This document shows positions 314 to 60,690 of a stretch of 64,000 nt of DNA, piece after piece. A program made the translations under genes and the position numbers. A model generated the notes under the pieces. That model was not told the origin of the DNA, made no database searches, and was given only the letters and a program-made list of their open reading frames with translations. How positions within the stretch are numbered: the stretch's first letter is position 1; each line of letters starts with the position of its first letter. This stretch comes from Deltaproteobacteria bacterium (GTDB lineage Bacteria; Desulfobacterota; GWC2-55-46): contig JACRNO010000060.1 in NCBI GenBank assembly GCA_016234855.1, positions 9,595 through 73,594 on the forward strand. Direction: 5' to 3'.

Positions 314-601
314 GGAAGCTCTGATTAATTCCCTAACTCGTCTTTGCGAGCGTAGCGAAGCAATCTCGTATCTTATGCAAATCAGCAAGTTACGAGATGT
401 AAATTATCCGCGAAAAACTACGGATAATTTACAAGTAAGGAATGGTCATTTGTATTCGCTTTTTTCGTCACGCAAAAAGCCGCGTGGTGAAAAAAGCTGT
501 GCTTGTCGCTTCGTCGCTTGTGCGCTAACGTTATGTCTTTAGCGCCTTTGGCGACAAAAGCGCTCCCCGCAAAGACAAAAAACGAATTAATCAGAGGTTC
601 C
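314..601. mobile_element. MITE-like element copy 1 (TIR GGAAGCTCTGATTAATTCC / GAATTAATCAGAGGTTCC)
   Basis: Terminal inverted repeats at 314-332 and 584-601. Internal modules are shared with other copies (GCGCTAACGTTATGTCTTTAGCGCC, GAGCGTAGCGAAGCAATCTCGTA...CAAGTTACGAGAT). No ORF of transposase size. Confidence 0.6.
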
Positions 602-10465: not shown

Positions 10466-10497
10466 TGTGGCGTCAGGAGGAAACTCCTGACGCCACA
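10466..10497. repeat. GTCAGGAG-GAAA-CTCCTGAC hairpin (family copy H1)
   Basis: TGTGGCGTCAGGAG-GAAA-CTCCTGACGCCACA: 14-bp stem, GAAA tetraloop. 3' of ppiD and 5' of proS. Confidence 0.65.
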
Positions 10498-10545: not shown

Positions 10546-12261
10546 ATGCGCTTCTCCAGAATGCTGCTCCACACGCTCAAGGAATCACCGTCGGACGCCG
10601 ACGTCATAAGCCAAAAACTCATGATGCGCTCCGGCATGATACTCAAGGTCGCCGCCGGAATATACAACCTCCTGCCTCTGGGACTGCGCGTCATATCGAA
10701 GGTCGAGGGCATCGTGCGCGAGGAGATGAACCGCGCGGGCGCCCAGGAAGTCTCCATGCCCGTCGTCATGCCCGCGGAGCTCTGGAAGGAGAGCGGCAGA
10801 TGGGACGTCTACGGCAAGGAGCTCCTGCGGTTCAAGGACCGGCACGACAGGGAGTTCTGCCTCGGGCCGACGCACGAAGAGGTCATAACGGACATAGTGC
10901 GGCGCACGGTCCGCTCGTACCGCGAACTGCCCCTTAACATCTATCAGATACAGACGAAGTTCCGCGACGAGATACGCCCGCGCTTCGGCCTTATGCGCGG
11001 ACGCGAGTTCACCATGAAGGACGCCTACTCCTTCCACGCGACCGACGAATGCGCGGAGCGCGAGTACCGCAACATGTACGACGCATACTGCCGCATATTC
11101 GAGAGGTGCGGCCTGAAGTTCCGCGCCGTGGAGGCCGAGACCGGGGCCATAGGCGGCAGGTTCTCGCACGAGTTCATGGTGCTGGCCGAGACCGGCGAGG
11201 ACGCCATAGCCTCGTGCAACGCCTGCTCCTACGCCGCAAACACCGAGCGCGCCGAGATAAGGCCGCCTGAGACGGCCATTTCAAACGAACCCGCCGGACC
11301 CATCGAGGCCGTAAAGACACCCGGCAAAAAGACGGTCGAGGACGTGAGCGCGCTCTTGAAGGTGGCGCCCTCAAGGCTGATAAAGACCCTCATCTACGAG
11401 ACGGACAAGGGCGTCATAGTTGCGCTCGTGCGGGGCGATTACGAATTGAACGAGATGAAGCTCTGCCGCGCCATTGACGCGGAATGGGTCAAACTCGCCG
11501 ACGAAGAGACGGTACGGAAGACCACGAACGCGCCGTCCGGCTTTGCCGGGCCTGTCGGCCTCAAAGCGGATATATGGGCCGACCACGGCGTAAGAGGGAT
11601 GGTAAACGGCGTCACGGGCGCGAACGCGGCGGATGAGCACCTTATAAACGTGTGCGAGGGCCGTGACTTCGAGGCGCAATTCGCCGACCTTCGCGTGGTT
11701 GTTGCGGGAGACGCCTGCCCGCGCTGCAAAGGCGCTCTCGAAATATTTCGCGGCATAGAGGTCGGCCACATCTTCAAGCTCGGCACAAAGTACTCGTCCG
11801 CCCTGTCCGCTACCTTCCTTGACGAGACTGGAAAGGCCCAACCTTTCATCATGGGCTGCTACGGCATTGGCATAGGCAGAACGGCCGCGGCCGCCATCGA
11901 GCAGAACCACGACGAGGCGGGCATCATCTGGCCTGGCCCCCTGGCCCCGTTCTCGTGCGAGGTCGTGCCGGTAAACGTCGCGGACGAAGGCACGAAGAAG
12001 GCGGCTGAGGCGTTATACCATGCGCTACAAGAGGCCGGGTGCGAGACCCTGCTCGACGACCGCGACGAGCGGCCAGGCGTAAAGTTCAAGGACGCGGACC
12101 TTATCGGCATACCCGTGCGCGTGACCATAGGCGAACGCAACCTGAAACAGGGGCTTGTAGAGATAAAAGAGAGGCGGGCAAAAGAGGCCCGGCTTGTCAA
12201 AGTGGAAGATGCGGCTGCGGCGGTGATGGAGGCTTTGAAGACGAGATTACCAGGGTCGTAG
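10546..12261 (+). CDS. proS: Proline--tRNA ligase
   Basis: Class II aaRS motifs (FRDEIRPRFGLMRGREFTMKDAYSFH). The ORF track opens at 10465, but the first 80 nt are a GTCAGGAG hairpin repeat, so the ATG at 10546 (MRFSRMLLHTLKE) is the likelier start. Confidence 0.9.
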   Translation: MRFSRMLLHTLKESPSDADVISQKLMMRSGMILKVAAGIYNLLPLGLRVISKVEGIVREEMNRAGAQEVSMPVVMPAELWKESGRWDVYGKELLRFKDRHDREFCLGPTHEEVITDIVRRTVRSYRELPLNIYQIQTKFRDEIRPRFGLMRGREFTMKDAYSFHATDECAEREYRNMYDAYCRIFERCGLKFRAVEAETGAIGGRFSHEFMVLAETGEDAIASCNACSYAANTERAEIRPPETAISNEPAGPIEAVKTPGKKTVEDVSALLKVAPSRLIKTLIYETDKGVIVALVRGDYELNEMKLCRAIDAEWVKLADEETVRKTTNAPSGFAGPVGLKADIWADHGVRGMVNGVTGANAADEHLINVCEGRDFEAQFADLRVVVAGDACPRCKGALEIFRGIEVGHIFKLGTKYSSALSATFLDETGKAQPFIMGCYGIGIGRTAAAAIEQNHDEAGIIWPGPLAPFSCEVVPVNVADEGTKKAAEALYHALQEAGCETLLDDRDERPGVKFKDADLIGIPVRVTIGERNLKQGLVEIKERRAKEARLVKVEDAAAAVMEALKTRLPGS

Positions 12262-12283: not shown

Positions 12284-12452
12284 AATTTTGTCCCGCGTTT
12301 ATTGTCATTTCGACCGAAGGGAGAAATCTTAAGATTCCTCACATTTGATAAGTTACAAGACAAGATTCCTCGGTCGCTTGTGCGCTAACGTTATGTCTTT
12401 GGCGCCTTCGCTTCCTCGGAATGACAGCGAAATGTAATTAATCAGAGGTTCC
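12284..12452. mobile_element. MITE-like element copy 2 (one clear TIR, internal GTCATTTCG...CGGAATGACA palindrome)
   Basis: Right TIR TAATTAATCAGAGGTTCC at 12435-12452. Shares the CTTGTGCGCTAACGTTATGTCTTTGGCGCC module with copy 1 and with 13495-13520 and 44391-44430. Confidence 0.5.
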
Positions 12453-12458
12453 CTGAGA

Positions 12459-12617
12459 ATGCAAAAACTCATCGCATGGATAGGCGCTATTATCGTGAGC
12501 TCCATCGGTTGGTGGGTCGGCAGTCAGATAGGCCTGATGACGGCGGTGATACTCTCGGGCATAGGCACTGGCGTGGGGTTCTACTACGGCATGAAGCTCG
12601 CAAAAAGATGGCTATAG
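12459..12617 (+). CDS. Hypothetical small hydrophobic protein (52 aa, Gly-rich, two predicted TM segments)
   Basis: ATG ORF MQKLIAWIGAIIVSSIGWWVGSQIGLMTAVILSGIGTGVGFYYGMKLAKRWL, below the 60-aa track cutoff. GAGG 10 nt upstream is supplied by the terminal repeat of the adjacent MITE-like element. Confidence 0.35.
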   Translation: MQKLIAWIGAIIVSSIGWWVGSQIGLMTAVILSGIGTGVGFYYGMKLAKRWL

Positions 12618-12819
12618 CGCTGAATATTATTACATCCCGACAGATACCGCCCTGCAGTTCAGGACTTCATCCCCTGAGACGACCCGCAAAGAGAAATAAA
12701 TAACCTCAACAGGCCCGTGATGCGCCTAAACACTGGTTCGTTTCTCTACGGCCCGCCGAGACTTAAAAAAGGTCTATCGTCTCTCCACGCAAGCCTGCTT
12801 ACCATATAACCCCTTATTA

Positions 12820-13303: not shown

Positions 13304-13572
13304 AAGGAACTTCTGATTAATTATATTCTGCTGTCATTCTGAAGGAGTCCAGCACCACCTTGCGTCGCCAAGTTTAGTTTTGGCACGAACTTTTGTGATG
13401 GAAAGTGGTGCTGGACGACTGAAGAATCTCGTAACTATTTGATTTGCCAATAGACAAGATTCTTCCCCATTCGCTACGCTCAGGGCTAAAGGCGCAAAAA
13501 GCATAACGTTAGCGCACAAGGCTCACGCGCTCAGAATGACAGGCTCAGTAGAATAAATCAGAGGGTCCTTAA
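13304..13572. mobile_element. MITE-like element copy 3, abutting second pilin gene
   Basis: TIRs AAGGAACTTCTGATTAATTAT (13304-13324) and GAATAAATCAGAGGGTCCTTAA (13551-13572). Internal GTCATTCTGAAGGAG...CTCAGAATGACA palindrome and GCGCTAACGTTATGC module. Confidence 0.6.
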
Positions 13573-14531: not shown

Positions 14532-14566
14532 TCACCGAAGTGACAAAAATTGTCACTTCGGTGATG
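14532..14566 (-). promoter_or_regulatory. Tandem dyad (TGTCAC-N4-GTGACA twice) candidate PilR enhancer
   Basis: 33-bp perfect palindrome TCACCGAAGTGACAA-AAA-TTGTCACTTCGGTGA centred about 95 bp upstream of the sigma-54 -24 element. This geometry is typical for bacterial enhancer-binding proteins. Confidence 0.55.
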
Positions 14567-14613
14567 GAGTTAATCTGCGGCGCGCAAGACATAACCCCTC
14601 CCGGCCTCCCCTT

Positions 14614-14716
14614 AAATAAGGGGAGGAGAAAGACAACTCTCCCCCGAGACGGAGGGCAGGCAACCTCTGCAAGTTTGCTTAAATAAGGGGAGGAGAAAGA
14701 CAACTCTCCCCCTCTT
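14614..14716. repeat. Two 35-bp direct repeats CTTAAATAAGGGGAGGAGAAAGACAACTCTCCCCC (GGGGAG hairpin family)
   Basis: Copies at about 14614-14650 and 14681-14716, each containing CCCCTTAAATAAGGGG and GGAGAAAGACAACTCTCC hairpins. Related GGGGAG/CTCCCC hairpins occur at 37930-38010, 44290-44370 and 59040-59150. Confidence 0.6.
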
Positions 14717-14729
14717 TTTAAAGAGGGGG
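14707..14729 (-). terminator. Putative terminator hairpin after pilR
   Basis: CCCCCTCTTTTTAAAGAGGGGG perfect hairpin 20 nt downstream of the pilR stop. The T-tract is weak. Confidence 0.4.
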
Positions 14730-14748: not shown

Positions 14749-16158
14749 CTACTCCTCCCCCACCCCATATTTGCTCAGCTTATAGCGCATGGCGCGAAAC
14801 GACATGCCAAGAAGCTCGGCAGCCTTCTTCTTTGCCCCGCCAGTAACCTTCAATGCGTCCATAATGGCCGTCCGCTCGAACTCTTCAACGGTCTTTTCAA
14901 GGTCAAACCCTGCCCCCTCTTTCAAGCGCGCAGGCGTAAGCCCCACGCGCTCGGCTGTATCCCCCTGCCCGGCCGCCTTCGGGGCCTGGCGCGCATGCAG
15001 GGGCAGGCTCTCCACGGTAATCAGATCGGAAGGCTCAAGGGCAACGGCGCGCTCCATTATGTTTTCAAGCTCGCGCACGTTGCCCGGATAATCGTATTCC
15101 ATGAGCGCGGCCATCGCCGGCGCGGAGATTACGGTTATGGTCTTGCCCATATCCTTATTATACTTCTCAAGAAAGTGCCTCGCTAAAAGCGGGATATCTT
15201 CTTTACGCTCGCGTAAGGCCGGCATATCGATACGTATCACGTTCAACCTGTAGAAGAGGTCTTCCCTGAACCTGCCCGCCTTGACCTCGGCCTCGAGGTT
15301 CCTATTTGAGGCGGCAATGAGCCTTATATCGACCGGTACATCGACAGTGCCGCCGACCCTGCGAAACCGCCTCTCCTGTATAAAACGCAGGAGCTTGACC
15401 TGAAGGTGCAGAGGCATCTCGGTCAACTCGTCGAGGAAGAGCGTGCCGCCGTCCGCCTCCTCGGCCAGCCCCTGCTTATTGGCCACCGCCCCTGTGAACG
15501 CGCCTTTCTGATGACCGAAGAGCTCGCTCTCAAGGAGGTTCTCGGGTATGGCCCCGCAGTTGACCGCGACGAACGGCGCGTCTTTCCTGTCGCTCTCGTG
15601 CCATATCGCCCGCGCCGCGATCTCCTTGCCCGTGCCGGATTCCCCGGTGATAAAGACGTTGGTCTTGCCCTTTGCTATGCTTACGATAAGCTGATATACC
15701 TCAGTCATCCTCGGGCTTGCCCCCACCATGTTTGCAAACCCGAACCTGGCCTTGCAATCGTCCTTAAGCAGCTTGTTCTCGAGTTCAAGCCGCCTGAGCT
15801 TCAGGGCCTTACGGATATTGAGCTTTATCTCGTCCACGTTGAACGGCTTGGTGAAATAATCAAACGCGCCGGCCTTCATGGCCTCAACCGCGGTATCGAC
15901 CGAGGCATATGCGGTAATCATTATGACGATGGTCTCGGGGGCCAGTTCCTTGACGGCCTTGAGAAACTCCAGGCCCGTCATGCCGGGCATCTTTAGGTCC
16001 GTCAGCACGAGGTCGCATCTGTTCTCCCTGCAGAACTCAAGCGCGGCAGCGGGAGCCGGGAAACTGCGCGCCTCGTAGCCTTCCTTGCGGAGCATTATCT
16101 CCAGAAAATCCCGCATGTCTTTCTCGTCGTCTACTATTATAATCCTCGGCGCGCTCAT
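14749..16158 (-). CDS. pilR: Sigma-54-dependent response regulator PilR (NtrC family)
   Basis: 469 aa with a REC domain (IIIVDDEKDMRD...D...K), an AAA+ sigma-54 activator domain (GESGTGKE, ESELFGH) and a C-terminal HTH. Sits between pilS and pilA as in Geobacter and Pseudomonas. Confidence 0.9.
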   Translation of the reverse strand: MSAPRIIIVDDEKDMRDFLEIMLRKEGYEARSFPAPAAALEFCRENRCDLVLTDLKMPGMTGLEFLKAVKELAPETIVIMITAYASVDTAVEAMKAGAFDYFTKPFNVDEIKLNIRKALKLRRLELENKLLKDDCKARFGFANMVGASPRMTEVYQLIVSIAKGKTNVFITGESGTGKEIAARAIWHESDRKDAPFVAVNCGAIPENLLESELFGHQKGAFTGAVANKQGLAEEADGGTLFLDELTEMPLHLQVKLLRFIQERRFRRVGGTVDVPVDIRLIAASNRNLEAEVKAGRFREDLFYRLNVIRIDMPALRERKEDIPLLARHFLEKYNKDMGKTITVISAPAMAALMEYDYPGNVRELENIMERAVALEPSDLITVESLPLHARQAPKAAGQGDTAERVGLTPARLKEGAGFDLEKTVEEFERTAIMDALKVTGGAKKKAAELLGMSFRAMRYKLSKYGVGEE

Positions 16159-20587: not shown

Positions 20588-20654
20588 GGACAGTGGTTAG
20601 TGATTAGTATCCACTATCCATTGTCCACTATCCACTAACCACTGTCCACTGTCC
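20588..20654. repeat. Stutter hairpin S2 (CCACTATCC-unit arms)
   Basis: GGACAGTGGTTAGTG...ATCCACTATCCATTGTCCACTATCCACTAACCACTGTCCACTGTCC, with a 15-bp stem GGACAGTGGTTAGTG/CACTAACCACTGTCC. Abuts the pilB stop codon, between pilB and pilT. Confidence 0.6.
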
Positions 20655-22445: not shown

Positions 22446-22596
22446 TTAAGGAAGCTCTGATTAATTCTGTTATTTGTCATTCCGAGGAGCGCTGTTGCGA
22501 CGAGGAATCTTGTAACTTGCTGAATTGCCTGCGAAACAAGATTTCTCGCTACGCTCGAAATGACAATTTGGTTGAATTAATCAGAGTTTCCTTAAT
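22446..22596. mobile_element. MITE-like element copy 4 (upstream of pilB)
   Basis: TIRs TTAAGGAAGCTCTGATTAATTC (22446-22467) and GAATTAATCAGAGTTTCCTTAA (22575-22596). Internal GTCATTCCGAGGAGCG...CGCTCGAAATGACA palindrome. Confidence 0.65.
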
Positions 22597-28515: not shown

Positions 28516-28545
28516 ACCCGCCGCCTGCTGCGCGCTTTCTCTGTG

Positions 28546-28692
28546 CCGTCAGGAGTTTCCTCCTGACGGCGGTACCCGGCGGATGGCAGGAGGAAACTCC
28601 CGCCATCACACTAATTTTCAGTCCCGTCAGGAGTTTCCTCCTGACGGCGGTGCCCGGCATATGGCAGGAGGAAACTCCCGCCATCACATTAA
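28546..28692. repeat. Two 69-bp direct repeats (78-bp period), each a double hairpin of the GTCAGGAG family (H2)
   Basis: CCGTCAGGAGTTTCCTCCTGACGGCGGT(A/G)CCCGGC(GG/AT)ATGGCAGGAGGAAACTCCCGCCATCACA(C/T)TAA at 28546-28614 and 28624-28692. About 94% identical. Confidence 0.7.
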
Positions 28693-30989: not shown

Positions 30990-31240
30990 CAAAGCCTTTT
31001 GTCATTCCCGAGGTCTTAGTCGGGAATCCAGTACGCATGAAGATAGAAAAAACTGGATTCCCGCCGGAGACACGCGGGAATGACGTATATCCGTAGCTCA
31101 GGCCAACAGGTCTGATACTGCGCGTCCAGCGCCCGTTGTTCAGGGCTAAACCCTGAGCGACACAAAATGAAATGCGTGTAGTCCAGACAGGCAGTCTGAG
31201 CCTGCGCTACTACAACGGAACGTAATTAATCAGGACTTCC
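30990..31240. repeat. One-ended MITE-related mosaic element
   Basis: Right TIR TAATTAATCAGGACTTCC at 31223-31240. Internal modules: GTCATTCCCGAGG...GGATTCCCGCC...CGCGGGAATGAC (shared with 60600-60690), CAGGGCTAAACCCTGAG and CAGGCAGTCTGAGCCTGC hairpins. No left TIR seen. Confidence 0.5.
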
Positions 31241-39282: not shown

Positions 39283-39370
39283 CTTGTATGTGGGATGTAG
39301 TATGTGGGATGTGGCAAAGTCTTCTATGCTTTCCGCCTTCCACTTCCCACATCCTACATCCCACCTCCCT
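39283..39370. repeat. Stutter hairpin S3 (TGTGGGATGT-unit arms)
   Basis: TGTGGGATGTAGTATGTGGGATGTGG...CCACTTCCCACATCCTACATCCCACC, about 26-bp imperfect arms. Intercistronic between the CsgG-like gene and the SLH-like lipoprotein gene. Confidence 0.6.
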
Positions 39371-41310: not shown

Positions 41311-41459
41311 TTAAGGAACCTCTGATTAATTCATTTCTTTTCTGTCATTCTGAGGAGCGAAGCGACGAAGAATCTCGTAACTTGTTGAATTTCTTAGAAG
41401 CGAGATTCTTCGCTTCGCTCAGAATGACACCATTGTGGAATTAATCAGAGGTTCCTTAA
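41311..41459. mobile_element. MITE-like element copy 6 (compact 149-bp archetype)
   Basis: Perfect TIRs TTAAGGAACCTCTGATTAATTC (41311-41332) and GAATTAATCAGAGGTTCCTTAA (41438-41459). Internal palindrome GTCATTCTGAGGAGCGAAGCGACGAAGAATCTCGTAACTTG...CGAGATTCTTCGCTTCGCTCAGAATGACA. Confidence 0.7.
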
Positions 41460-44123: not shown

Positions 44124-44185
44124 GTGGCGTCAGGAGTTTTCTCCTGACGCCTTGCCGTGCGCCGTCGGGAGGAAACTCCCGACGG
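44124..44185. repeat. GTCAGGAG-family hairpins (H3, two adjacent)
   Basis: GTGGCGTCAGGAGTTTTCTCCTGACGCC and CCGTCGGGAGGAAACTCCCGACGG, at the 5' end of the amidohydrolase gene. Confidence 0.6.
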
Positions 44186-44194
44186 AACAAAAAT

Positions 44195-44440
44195 ACCGCA
44201 TATGCACAAATGTAGCGCAGACCTTTAGGTCTGCCGTTTCGGCAAAACTACATCAGGGCTAAAGCCCTAAGCTACAAACCCATCATTGCTGCACTTGTAG
44301 GAATCCAGCGCCCCCTCATCCCGGCCTTCTCCCCAAGGGGAGAAGGAGCAGAACCTCCTCTCCCCTTTGGGGAGGCGCCAAAGGCGCTAAAGACATAACG
44401 TTAGCGCACACGACACAACGTTAGCGCACGAGAGGATTGA
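44195..44440. repeat. Mosaic of shared intergenic modules
   Basis: Contains GTAGCGCAGACCTTTAGGTCTGCC, CAGGGCTAAAGCCCTAAGCTAC, CTCCCCAAGGGGAGAAGGAG/CTCCCCTTTGGGGAGG hairpins and two copies of the ACAACGTTAGCGCAC module. Lies upstream of pycB. Confidence 0.5.
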
Positions 44441-46391: not shown

Positions 46392-46457
46392 AAGTTATCG
46401 GTTATCAGTTATCAGTAAATGTGTTTCCGTTTTACCGATAACCGATAACGGATAACC
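46392..46457. repeat. Stutter hairpin S4 (GTTATC-unit arms)
   Basis: AAGTTATCGGTTATCAGTTATCAG...CCGATAACCGATAACGGATAACC. Intercistronic between pycA and pycB. Confidence 0.6.
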
Positions 46458-52029: not shown

Positions 52030-52180
52030 ATTAAGGAACCTCTGATTAATTCGCAAACGTATGTCATTCTGAGCGGAGCGAAGAATCTCGTATATAGGCA
52101 AATCAACAAGTTACGAGATTCTTCAGTCGCTGCGCTCCTTCAGAATGACAGTAGGACAGAATAAATCAGAGCTTCCTTAA
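52030..52180. mobile_element. MITE-like element copy 7
   Basis: TIRs TTAAGGAACCTCTGATTAATTC (52030-52051) and GAATAAATCAGAGCTTCCTTAA (52159-52180). Same internal GTCATTCTGAGCGGAGCGAAGAATCTCGTA...CAAGTTACGAGATTCTTC...CAGAATGACA palindrome. Confidence 0.7.
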
Positions 52181-53079: not shown

Positions 53080-53103
53080 GGGTCAGGAGGAAACTCCTGA
53101 CCC
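53080..53103. repeat. GTCAGGAG-GAAA-CTCCTGAC hairpin (H4)
   Basis: GGGTCAGGAG-GAAA-CTCCTGACCC, between accC and the lipoate ligase-like gene. Confidence 0.6.
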
Positions 53104-58299: not shown

Positions 58300-58470
58300 A
58301 AATGAAACTCTTATTAATTCCCAGGTCTGTCATTGCAAACTCAGAGCGCCTGTCTGGACTATACGGAGCGCATCTTTGCGCAGCTCAGGGCTTTAGCCCT
58401 GAATAGACGGCGCTGGACGCGGTATCAGGCCTGAAGGCCTGAGCTACACATATACGTCATTCCCGCTTAA
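58300..58470. repeat. Degenerate MITE-related mosaic (CTTATTAATTCCC end; GCGCAGCTCAGGGCTTTAGCCCTGA and CAGGCCTGAAGGCCTGAGCTAC modules)
   Basis: Shares hairpin modules with 31100-31200, 40385-40460 and 44210-44270. Confidence 0.4.
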
Positions 58471-58480
58471 ACAGAGCCTC

Positions 58481-59002
58481 CTAATTCAGCCCCCGCTCTT
58501 TCAAGAACCCCTTAATCCTTGCAACGACCTCAGCCATTGTCAAGCCGGTCGTATCGACGCTGAGATCGCAATCCCCGTAGGCCGAATCACGCTCGGCCAT
58601 CAGCCTCTCAATCGTATCGCGCCTCTTGGCGCCCGACAGAAGCGGCCTGGCCTCGGCCTTGCCGACCCTGTCGAGCATCTCGTCCACGGAGGCAGTCAGC
58701 AGAACGACCGTGCCCCAACGCCTGAGCGCGTCCCTGTTGGACTTTCTCAGCACGGCGCCGCCTCCAGTGGCAAGGACGCAGTTGGCGCCATACGCGCCGC
58801 TCACAACCTTTTCTATGGCCTCGGCCTCGAGCCTGCGAAACTCCGTTTCGCCGCCGGAGTTGAATATCTCCTTTATGCTTGCGCCTGAGGCCGTCTCGAT
58901 AATATCATCAAGGTCGAGGAACTCAAGCCCGCACTCCCGTGCAAGAATTTTACCGACCGACGACTTGCCAGTGCCCATGAAACCGGTAAGGATGATATTC
59001 AT
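58481..59002 (-). CDS. aroK: Shikimate kinase
   Basis: MNIILTGFMGTGKSSVGKILA (P-loop). About 173 aa. Start at the ATG at 59002. Confidence 0.9.
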   Translation of the reverse strand: MNIILTGFMGTGKSSVGKILARECGLEFLDLDDIIETASGASIKEIFNSGGETEFRRLEAEAIEKVVSGAYGANCVLATGGGAVLRKSNRDALRRWGTVVLLTASVDEMLDRVGKAEARPLLSGAKRRDTIERLMAERDSAYGDCDLSVDTTGLTMAEVVARIKGFLKERGLN

Positions 59003-60395: not shown

Positions 60396-60690
60396 TTAAG
60401 GAAGCTCTGATTTATTCTGTCTTATTGTCATTCTGAAGGAGCGCAGCGACTGAAGAATCTCGTAACTTGTTGATTTGCCTATATACGAGATTCTTCGCGG
60501 AGTTTACCCTGAGCGAAAAACTGAGATTCTTCGCTTCGCTCAGAATGACATAGCGAAGGGCTCATAATGACATACGTTTGCAATTAATCAGAGCTTCCTT
60601 AACTCGAATTCGTCATTCCCGCGAACGCGGGAATCCAGAAATCACCAAGAGACTGGATTCCCGACTAAAGCATCGGGAATGACATTTATA
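60396..60690. mobile_element. MITE-like element copy 8 (composite: TIR-bounded unit 60396-60602 plus appended GTCATTCCCGCG...CGGGAATGACA module)
   Basis: TIRs TTAAGGAAGCTCTGATTTATTC and CAATTAATCAGAGCTTCCTTAA. The internal palindrome is duplicated/expanded. 60603-60690 carries the GGGAATCCAG...CTGGATTCCC module also seen at 30995-31090. Confidence 0.65.

Follow-up and report, generated by a model that had tools for sequence, protein, structure and literature searches.

A stretch of 64,000 nucleotides from the metagenome-assembled genome of an uncultured Deltaproteobacteria bacterium (GenBank assembly GCA_016234855.1, contig JACRNO010000060.1, positions 9,595 to 73,594; the whole stretch is called the window below) carries at positions 41311-41459 a short palindromic repeat with relatives in several other intergenic spacers. 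This locus raises the questions of what kind of element the repeat is, which enzyme could move it, and what its interior consists of. A first-pass annotation had regarded the repeats as a family of miniature transposable elements with inverted repeats (MITEs). We found that they are a real and widespread MITE family of the IS5 group with 4-bp target-site duplications and that, in the main subfamily, two covarying hairpins of the NTS/Ssn-motif design make up the core, which is not a remnant of an insertion sequence (IS).

Copies of the Repeat in the Window

The inventory of copies was built from a site-by-site reading of the window plus a search for paired terminal inverted repeats. The family was clearly real, as had been claimed: the 20-mer TTAAGGAACYTCTGATTAAT had 13 matches at up to three mismatches in the window compared with 0 in shuffled sequences, and the 11-mer CTCTGATTAAT had 14 matches compared with 0.74 expected. 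We recognized six complete copies of 141-288 bp, a further complete copy that is degenerate, and two copies with the right end only. The density that had been called unusual was indeed high, with 9 copies in 64 kb (about one per 7-8 kb), but it has precedents such as ERIC, which is present in 711 copies in Photorhabdus (PMC10969869). The G+C content of the window is 52-60%. The features are as follows.

314..601, minus strand: MITE copy of 288 bp in the ligT/recA spacer; both terminal repeats; flanks CCAT/CTAT
12300..12452, unstranded: one-ended copy in the spacer between proS and a small conserved open reading frame (ORF); right terminal repeat 12436-12452, flank CTGA
13306..13568, plus strand: MITE copy of 263 bp between two pilin genes, immediately upstream of one; flanks CCAA/TTAA
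22446..22595, plus strand: MITE copy of 142 bp (22450-22591) in the response regulator/pilB spacer; TTAA on each side
31001..31084, unstranded: convergent doublet of NTS-like hairpins (GTCATTCCCG...CGGGAATCCAG) with no terminal repeats; abuts 31085..31240
31085..31240, unstranded: one-ended copy of a second subfamily in the MCP/hybrid kinase spacer; right terminal repeat 31224-31240, flank CTAA
41311..41459, plus strand: flagged MITE of 141 bp (41315-41455) in the FlgT_N-like/GNA1162-like lipoprotein gene spacer; TTAA duplication
44195..44440, unstranded: intergenic mosaic of small palindromes, not a MITE; module a 44383-44407, module c 44253-44270; no terminal repeat
52031..52180, minus strand: MITE copy of 142 bp (52035-52176) in the TPR protein/lipoate ligase spacer; TTAA duplication
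58303..58481, unstranded: degenerate copy of the second subfamily in the aroB/aroK spacer; terminal repeats with 3 and 4 mismatches
60396..60602, plus strand: MITE copy of 199 bp (60400-60598) at the pilQ/aroC junction; TTAA duplication
60611..60685, unstranded: hairpin doublet outside a MITE, beside 60396..60602 at the pilQ/aroC junction

In agreement with the first-pass annotation, every copy sits between ORFs with Pfam support, and none encodes a protein or is long enough for a transposase. The flagged copy at 41311-41459 forms an almost perfect palindrome whose ends are complementary over 22 nt; its 18-bp terminal repeats are 100% complementary, and each arm of 41315-41455 contains a CT/AG-type hairpin. 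The copy at 52035-52176 shares 98% identity with 60400-60598 over the columns common to both and 89% identity with a copy in locus L060. Other copies vary: the 288-bp copy at 314..601 has GC-type hairpin arms (GTCTTTGCGAG...) and an interior enlarged by nested small palindromes (399-432; module a, 522-546), the 263-bp copy at 13306..13568 is enlarged by insertions in both arms, and the copy at 22450-22591, upstream of a pilB promoter-like site, has a CC/GG stem in its left arm and a TC/GA stem in its right arm. The copy at 12300..12452 lacks the left terminal repeat; inside it are module a (12382-12406) and a hairpin unit of the TC type (12304-12331). The interior of 31085..31240 recurs in inverted orientation in 58303-58481. 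A metagenome copy (L205) of 200 bp has the same layout as 60400-60598, with 88% identity over the aligned columns, which suggests that this longer variant is passed on in this form. Identity among copies was 84-98% within the window and 82-93% to the copies of other genomes; thus, the likeness within a genome is no greater than that between genomes.

The anatomy was less uniform than first described. Terminal repeats had been attributed to all listed copies, and this held for the six complete ones, whereas those that end at 12452 and 31240 retain the right end only. The inner palindrome GTCATTCTGAG...CTCAGAATGAC was not present in every copy, since 314 carries the GC variant GTCTTTGCGAG and 22450 carries CC and TC variants; the interior of the copies at 31240 and 58303 is of another kind. 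Of the two proposed degenerate relatives, 58303-58481 was a degenerate complete copy, but 44195-44440 turned out to be a palindrome mosaic without a terminal repeat.

Terminal Repeats, Target-Site Duplications, and a Candidate IS5-Family Partner

The terminal inverted repeat is GGAA(C/G)CTCTGATTAATTC, 17-18 bp long. The first-pass annotation had included TTAA in this repeat; however, TTAA lies outside it as a 4-bp target duplication, and the repeat proper begins with GGAA. We scanned one genome per species with GGAANCTCTGATTWATT and obtained at least 120 loci, those listed being mostly metagenome-assembled genomes (MAGs) of Gammaproteobacteria, together with "Deltaproteobacteria", Nitrospira, and the cultured Microbulbifer thermotolerans DSM 19189. 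Because a lone 17-mer is expected several hundred times by chance in the 596 Gb searched, we relied solely on ends that occur in pairs, and by this measure elements with these ends occur in many other genomes and metagenomes. These loci plus the window yielded 72 short elements bounded by inverted ends, 71 of them with enough flanking sequence. The 4-bp flanks were identical in 36/71 (TTAA 17, TTAG 6, CTAA 6, also GTAG, ATAG, CTAT, and others), compared with 0 matches for the next 4 bp outward. In a second, independent metagenome set, selected for the terminal repeat plus GTCATT, the flanks were identical in 32 of 50 elements, again with 0 in the control. The search for target duplications proposed in the first-pass annotation thus gave 68 of 121 elements in the pooled sets and none in the controls; the duplication types of the MITEs were TTAA (26), TTAG (16), CTAA (13), and CTAG (2). 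Since TTAG/TTAG, CTAA/CTAA, and GTAG/GTAG are direct and non-palindromic, the tetranucleotide is a target-site duplication and not part of an inverted repeat. In the window itself, four of the six complete copies are flanked by TTAA/TTAA.

When the window was compared by BLAST with the first 120 loci, the only matches were the MITEs and one M20 peptidase gene, so that these loci include no close relative, and a literature search for the terminal-repeat string returned nothing relevant. Elements with the same ends are present in the cultured strain M. thermotolerans DSM 19189 (L009 6608-6820, L018 5877-6066); one of them has perfect ends, a TTAA duplication, and an unrelated interior, and this strain is a possible experimental host.

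A transposase whose element ends match the terminal repeat had also been proposed as a check, and such elements were found, in other genomes only. Five loci (L047, L092, L024, L052, and L075) contain elements of 1179-1195 bp that have these ends, are flanked by CTAG or GTAG duplications, and carry one ORF of 318-320 aa apiece. The protein of L047, the only one scanned, matched Pfam DDE_Tnp_1 and DUF772 (7e-31 and 2e-20) and the NCBIfam model NF033581, "IS5 family transposase", at 360 bits compared with a cutoff of 140. This agrees with the IS5 group, in which an IS of 1.0-1.5 kb encodes a DDE_Tnp_1 transposase of about 320 aa that has DUF772 at its N terminus. The L047 protein shares 64% identity with a transposase of the IS5 family found on Klebsiella plasmids, where the IS has the ends GGCAATGCTGATCAAG and a TTAA duplication. 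A homologue search found thousands of relatives of 318 aa in metagenomes, often on contigs of about 1.2 kb, and none attributable to the lineage of the window. The IS and the MITEs have nothing in common beyond position 18, and MITEs of other lineages with the same ends have unrelated interiors, which indicates that only the ends are needed.

On this anatomy, we proposed that an IS5-family DDE transposase supplied in trans would recognize the 17-18-bp GGAA(C/G)CTCTGATTAATTC and would integrate the element into tetranucleotides that resemble YTAR, most often TTAA in the AT-rich spacers of an AT-poor genome, with duplication of the 4 bp. A 4-bp duplication at YTAR targets is typical of the IS5 group. 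Mobilization in trans is what we infer from the shared ends.

Occupancy Differences among Syntenic Relatives

Presence or absence of the repeats at orthologous loci was addressed in three syntenic relatives, L121 (GCA_016219025.1), L122 (JGI), and L123 (ENA). The ProS of the window is 100% identical to a protein recorded for a Deltaproteobacteria MAG, and the relatives that come next have 85-87% identity in this protein. Gene order was conserved in all three; the occupied junctions were different. The ligT-recA spacer is 36 bp in L121 compared with about 530 bp in the window, where it contains the 288-bp copy. At the junction of proS and the small ORF, the genes abut in L121, only a hairpin doublet is present in L122, and the window has a one-ended copy. 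Conversely, a 142-bp copy with TTAA duplications lies at 10472-10613 of L122, where the matching window junction is empty, and the mreD-mreC junction of L123 contains an insert of about 290 bp compared with 44 bp in the window. Taken together, the target duplications, the matching IS5-family transposase, and the differences in occupancy supported the first-pass view of a non-autonomous MITE family.

The small ORF directly 3' of proS is conserved among three relatives and encodes 53-63 aa (MQKLIAWIGAIIVSS...GFYYGMKLAKRWL; window 12459-12650, L121 11706-11867, L122 10110-10298). It is probably a membrane protein and has no Pfam match on record.

Hairpin Units in the Core

In the main subfamily, two hairpin units that converge make up the inner palindrome; they follow the plan GTC-ATTxy-loop-x'y'AAT-C(T/C)(T/C)(G/A) and a loop of 11-20 nt; the forms observed include GTCATTCTGAG...AGAATCTCG and GTCATTGCGAG...GCAATCTC. 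The window contains 13 such units compared with 1.1 expected, and all are paired convergently except the unit at 12304, which has no partner. A MAFFT alignment of nine cores misplaced the covarying dinucleotides by one gap column, and pairing was tested by anchored extraction. Across all DNA gathered, GTCATTxy...zwAATC was extracted without requiring pairing, and zw was complementary to xy in 158 of 250 cases, compared with a mean of 50.7 and a maximum of 67 when the stem pairing was permuted. The complementary stem types included GC (88), CC/GG (38), CT/AG (23), and TC/GA (5). Both arms had the same stem type in 36 of 38 elements, and the same ends, spacers, and centre (GTAACTTGYTGATTT) were combined with CT, GC, or TC stems; the stem type has therefore undergone coordinated change within one family. 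In the copy at 22450 the arms differ (CC compared with TC) while each local stem is intact, which favours the local hairpin as the conserved unit.

For a single strand of the MITE, the predicted folding energy is -48 kcal/mol for DNA (z = -14) and -74 kcal/mol for RNA (z = -13), and a copy would form a very stable hairpin if transcribed. The first-pass annotation had considered several copies likely to influence expression. This has to be lowered to a conjecture: in simple scans, the copies tested contained no site resembling a promoter or a terminator, and the strong pilB promoter-like site (22430-22402) lies between the MITE and pilB, outside the element. An effect on expression is conceivable by analogy with Correia elements and ERIC (PMC10969869).

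Relation to NTS/Ssn Motifs and GIY-YIG Nucleases

In Neisseria, dRS3 is part of a 28-nt hairpin called NTS (CGTCATTCCCGCGMAVGCGGGAATCYRG), and Ssn-related motifs (SRMs) related to NTS have been found across phyla, where the genes they flank encode SsnA, a GIY-YIG nuclease of 94 aa with a single domain; this enzyme cleaves single-stranded DNA at the motif and reduces transformation (Chenal et al. 2025, PMC11893778). The unit at 60611-60638 is an exact match to the NTS consensus of Neisseria meningitidis, CGTCATTCCCGCGMAVGCGGGAATCYRG, as well as to the SRM pattern; it is the sole strict match in the 64 kb, where 0.42 matches to a looser pattern are expected. The MITE arms and the other doublets keep the GTC-hairpin-ATC plan and its flanks, and among all of these only the 60611 unit fits the SRM pattern. 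The units with GC, CT, or TC stems escape the published search pattern; thus, Ssn-type repeats are probably undercounted.

A small GIY-YIG gene beside such units was observed in a metagenome. At L171 590-886, this gene, which encodes 98 aa (Pfam PF01541, 50 bits), has a hairpin unit on one side and an inverted unit on the other; 10 nt beyond the inverted unit come an IS5-type right end and CTAA, and the gene is 40 bp from the IS5-type end. Homologues of this gene, chosen by protein similarity only, gave three further gene neighbourhoods (L246-L260). In all four neighbourhoods, the genes encode single-domain GIY-YIG proteins of 97-98 aa with GTCATTGCGAGCGNAGCGAAGCAATC units close by (within about 150 bp in the homologues); the units are on both sides and converge in three of the four, and are upstream only in P0243. 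In one set of homologues, a 130-bp MITE with a TTAA duplication occupies the leader of the gene, and an arm of window copy 314 (340-368) is one position off the units that flank the GIY-YIG genes. The genes of about 97 aa are often on very short contigs, as repeated or mobile DNA would give. A PDB search with the GIY-YIG protein returned a weak UPF0213 match only.

By analogy with the Ssn system, we inferred that in single-stranded DNA the core units may be recognition or cleavage sites of a small GIY-YIG nuclease of the Ssn type, and that the MITE may be a vehicle that spreads the target hairpins of this nuclease. Carried further, the IS5-type MITE would be a vehicle for Ssn-nuclease target hairpins across Gamma- and "Delta"-proteobacteria, with the doublet possibly a derivative of a hairpin-ssn-hairpin unit that lacks the gene; we put this forward tentatively, as a proposal that has less than an even chance of being correct.

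Weighing the Alternatives

Taking the ends and the core together, we consider it very probable that the repeats are non-autonomous transposons that carry only IS5-group ends, around a hairpin-doublet core that would serve as an Ssn-type target. Several observations weigh against this conclusion. With regard to mobilization, no transposase with these ends was found in the window or in the same-lineage loci (about 100 kb of the lineage), and the matching IS was seen in other genomes only. In two copies of the window the duplications are imperfect (CCAT/CTAT and CCAA/TTAA). The orthologous loci differ in occupancy, but no base-exact empty site could be aligned because the intergenic DNA is too diverged at 85-87% ProS identity, and a metagenome scan for the left flank of the flagged copy joined to TTAA and the right flank found nothing. 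With regard to the core, the MITE arms fall outside the published SRM pattern, owing to a GC stem dinucleotide or an over-long loop; no GIY-YIG ORF was found by regular expression, a weak test, in the window or in the same-lineage loci (about 100 kb); and the GIY-YIG proteins are candidate members of cd10448 (Ssn) only. The frequency of the composite is biased upward by the selection of the second set, which leaves the pairing test unaffected.

Among the rival explanations, the one that survives best makes the hairpin doublet the primary mobile unit, either REPIN-like or derived from SRM-ssn-SRM and with an enzyme of its own, which came secondarily to lie in or beside IS5-type MITEs or solo ends, so that the terminal repeats would be incidental to its spread. 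Doublets without terminal repeats do exist, at 31001-31084, at 60611-60685, 3' of proS in L122, and at about 7460-7570 of L123, where the loop is the same as in the MITE core. The one-ended copies have a doublet at the place of the missing end, hairpin units are tandemly multiplied beside GIY-YIG genes, and small inserts are nested in hairpin loops. However, the 130-bp family of gammaproteobacterial and marine DNA and the 141-bp family of the window appear alignable over their full length, with the same asymmetry of a long-loop and a short-loop arm and the same GTAACTNGTTGATT centre, which argues for one composite ancestor that spread as a unit. Moreover, for the longer variants a match in size and layout exists elsewhere (L205 for window 60400), and the duplications border the composite and not the doublet. 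We therefore regard a primary doublet as possible, though unlikely.

It is also conceivable that the copies are dead relics of an ancient family that is immobile in this lineage, their similarity being kept by gene conversion between palindromic repeats. The imperfect duplications in two of six complete copies, the loss of an end in two copies, the degeneration of one, and the lack of a visible transposase in the lineage (about 100 kb) would fit such a history. It does not sit well with four perfect TTAA duplications, with the perfect 18-bp ends of the flagged copy, with two copies that are 98% identical, or with occupied junctions that differ between relatives at 85-87% ProS identity, and we judged it improbable.

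Least of all do we expect the repeats to be kept for an RNA function, as genes for structured RNAs or as RNA hairpins that regulate in cis (terminators, RNase III sites, or small RNAs), a reading that appeals to the very stable predicted hairpin, the covarying stems, and the intergenic position of the copies, several between co-directional genes, but that we reject, since target duplications and insertion-sequence ends are not expected of RNA genes, the copies lie in both orientations relative to neighbour genes, the scanned copies have neither a T-tract terminator signature nor a promoter-like site, and no Rfam family reached its gathering threshold (two copies gave sub-threshold generic hairpin matches, and the NTS doublet only a weak sub-threshold match to WsnRNA46). 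The single conserved family of structured RNA genes that the first-pass annotation had named as its refuting case was thus not found in Rfam.

Other Small Palindromes and Neighbouring Repeats

The optional modules reported in the first-pass annotation are present in copies, but they also occur outside the elements (215, 44383, 44253, 60611-60685) and are separate small repeats. The module GCGCTAACGTTATGTCTTTAGCGCC is at 215-239, 522-546, 12382-12406, 13491-13515, and 44383-44407, inside and outside MITEs, and TCAGGGCTAAAGCCCTGA-like hairpins are at 44253 and 58385. The repeat CGTCAGGAG(TTTCC/GGAAAC)TCCTGACG is found at 10471-10492, 28547-28568, 28625-28646, 44128-44149, 44163-44184, and 53081-53102, and 28541-28688 contains two units of about 78 bp of the CGTCAGGAG...TCCTGACG repeat in tandem. 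In L123 the module repeats, including CGTCAGGAG...TCCTGACG, are abundant and form arrays that resemble BIME or NIME mosaics, and metagenome copies of the MITE contain small inserts within the hairpin loops. The "modular" look of some copies would then come from other short palindromic repeats nested into or beside them.

Further repeats of this kind were observed in passing. L123 has a GGCGCCAAAGACAAACGATGGCGCAC array related to GCGCTAACGTTATGTCTTTAGCGCC and, at about 11290-11410, three tandem GATGATTTAGGGATTCCAGCTTGCGGGAATGAC units, which are half-hairpins arranged head to tail and resemble Neisseria NIME arrays. Long hairpins with stems of imperfect heptamer-like repeats (GTGGGATGTAGTATGTGGGATGTGG, GGTTAGTGATTAGT, GTTATCGGTTATCAGT) are located at 39290-39364, 20588-20647, and 46394-46449 in the window, just past the stop codon of minus-strand genes, a terminator-like position, with no T tract. 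The long spacer that separates the second pilin gene from a 469-aa ORF (14749-16158) contains two repeats, at 14532-14564 and 14605-14725: the inverted repeat TTGTCACCGAAGTGACAAAAATTGTCACTTCGGTGA and a direct repeat, about 35 bp long, that includes CCTCCCCTTAAATAAGGGGAGG. At the same place in L123, similar palindromes with G or C tracts lie beside a sigma-54 activator.

Comparison with Known Systems and Significance

As a MITE family the repeats are ordinary, and the hairpin cargo is the unusual part. Correia elements have a 26-bp terminal repeat and a TA duplication. Membership in that family was rejected because the end sequence differs and the duplication here is 4 bp. The repeats are also not RUP elements, which derive from IS630-Spn1, because their 4-bp duplication and IS5-family partner are not TA/IS630-type ends. 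The kinship with Correia and RUP elements that had been suggested at first does not extend to the ends, and only a general likeness holds: like Correia elements, the copies are of 100-200 bp, intergenic, of comparable density, and able to form a long hairpin when transcribed, and Correia elements likewise coexist in one genome with dRS3/NTS hairpins, as these copies do with NTS-type hairpins (PMC2649163, PMC10969869). Unlike in Correia elements, no promoter-like hexamers were found in these copies, and a candidate transposase family was identified.

Close parallels are the IS5-related MITEs BrickBuilt, MITE293, and MITE700 of Porphyromonas gingivalis and ATR of Neisseria, which goes with ISNme1 (PMC4596501). 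Like these, the copies are short and non-coding, have IS5-family terminal repeats only ("type II") around an interior unrelated to the IS, and are in many cases partial; they differ in the terminal repeat (GGAASCTCTGATTAATTC compared with GAGACCTTTGCA), in the regular 4-bp YTAR duplication, in a core that is a hairpin doublet and not a minisatellite, and in a family range that spans several phyla in MAGs and metagenomes. With NTS and the SRMs, the core units share the 5' (C)GTC, the ATT... hairpin, and the 3' ATCYNG, and units of this type flank single-domain GIY-YIG genes of about 97 aa; in contrast to them, most units here have 5-bp stems, loops of 11-20 nt, and other stem dinucleotides (CT, GC, TC), and the doublets are packaged between IS5-type ends with target duplications, which are absent from the published account (PMC11893778). 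Inverted doublets of short hairpins and small palindromes clustered in intergenic mosaics also recall REPIN/RAYT and the BIME/NIME mosaics; unlike REPINs, the doublets here are enclosed by DDE-transposon ends. Membership in REPIN/RAYT was rejected, since the 5' motif is GTC and not of the GTAG type, no Y1 (RAYT) gene was seen, and the flanked gene encodes a GIY-YIG nuclease.

The family is a previously undescribed and very widespread group of IS5-type MITEs, which is present in many uncultured gamma- and "delta"-proteobacterial MAGs, in Nitrospira, and in M. thermotolerans DSM 19189. For annotation, these elements explain why MAGs contain many spurious ORFs of short length and many contigs that are broken. 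How hairpin repeats of the NTS type reach hundreds of copies per genome has been left as an open question (PMC11893778), and transposition on a MITE offers a testable mechanism for their spread. If the vehicle proposal is true, a DDE transposase would seed genomes with cleavage sites for a GIY-YIG single-stranded DNA nuclease that limits the recombination of incoming DNA, and the multiplication of such hairpin repeats, the point left open in the Ssn paper, would be explained.

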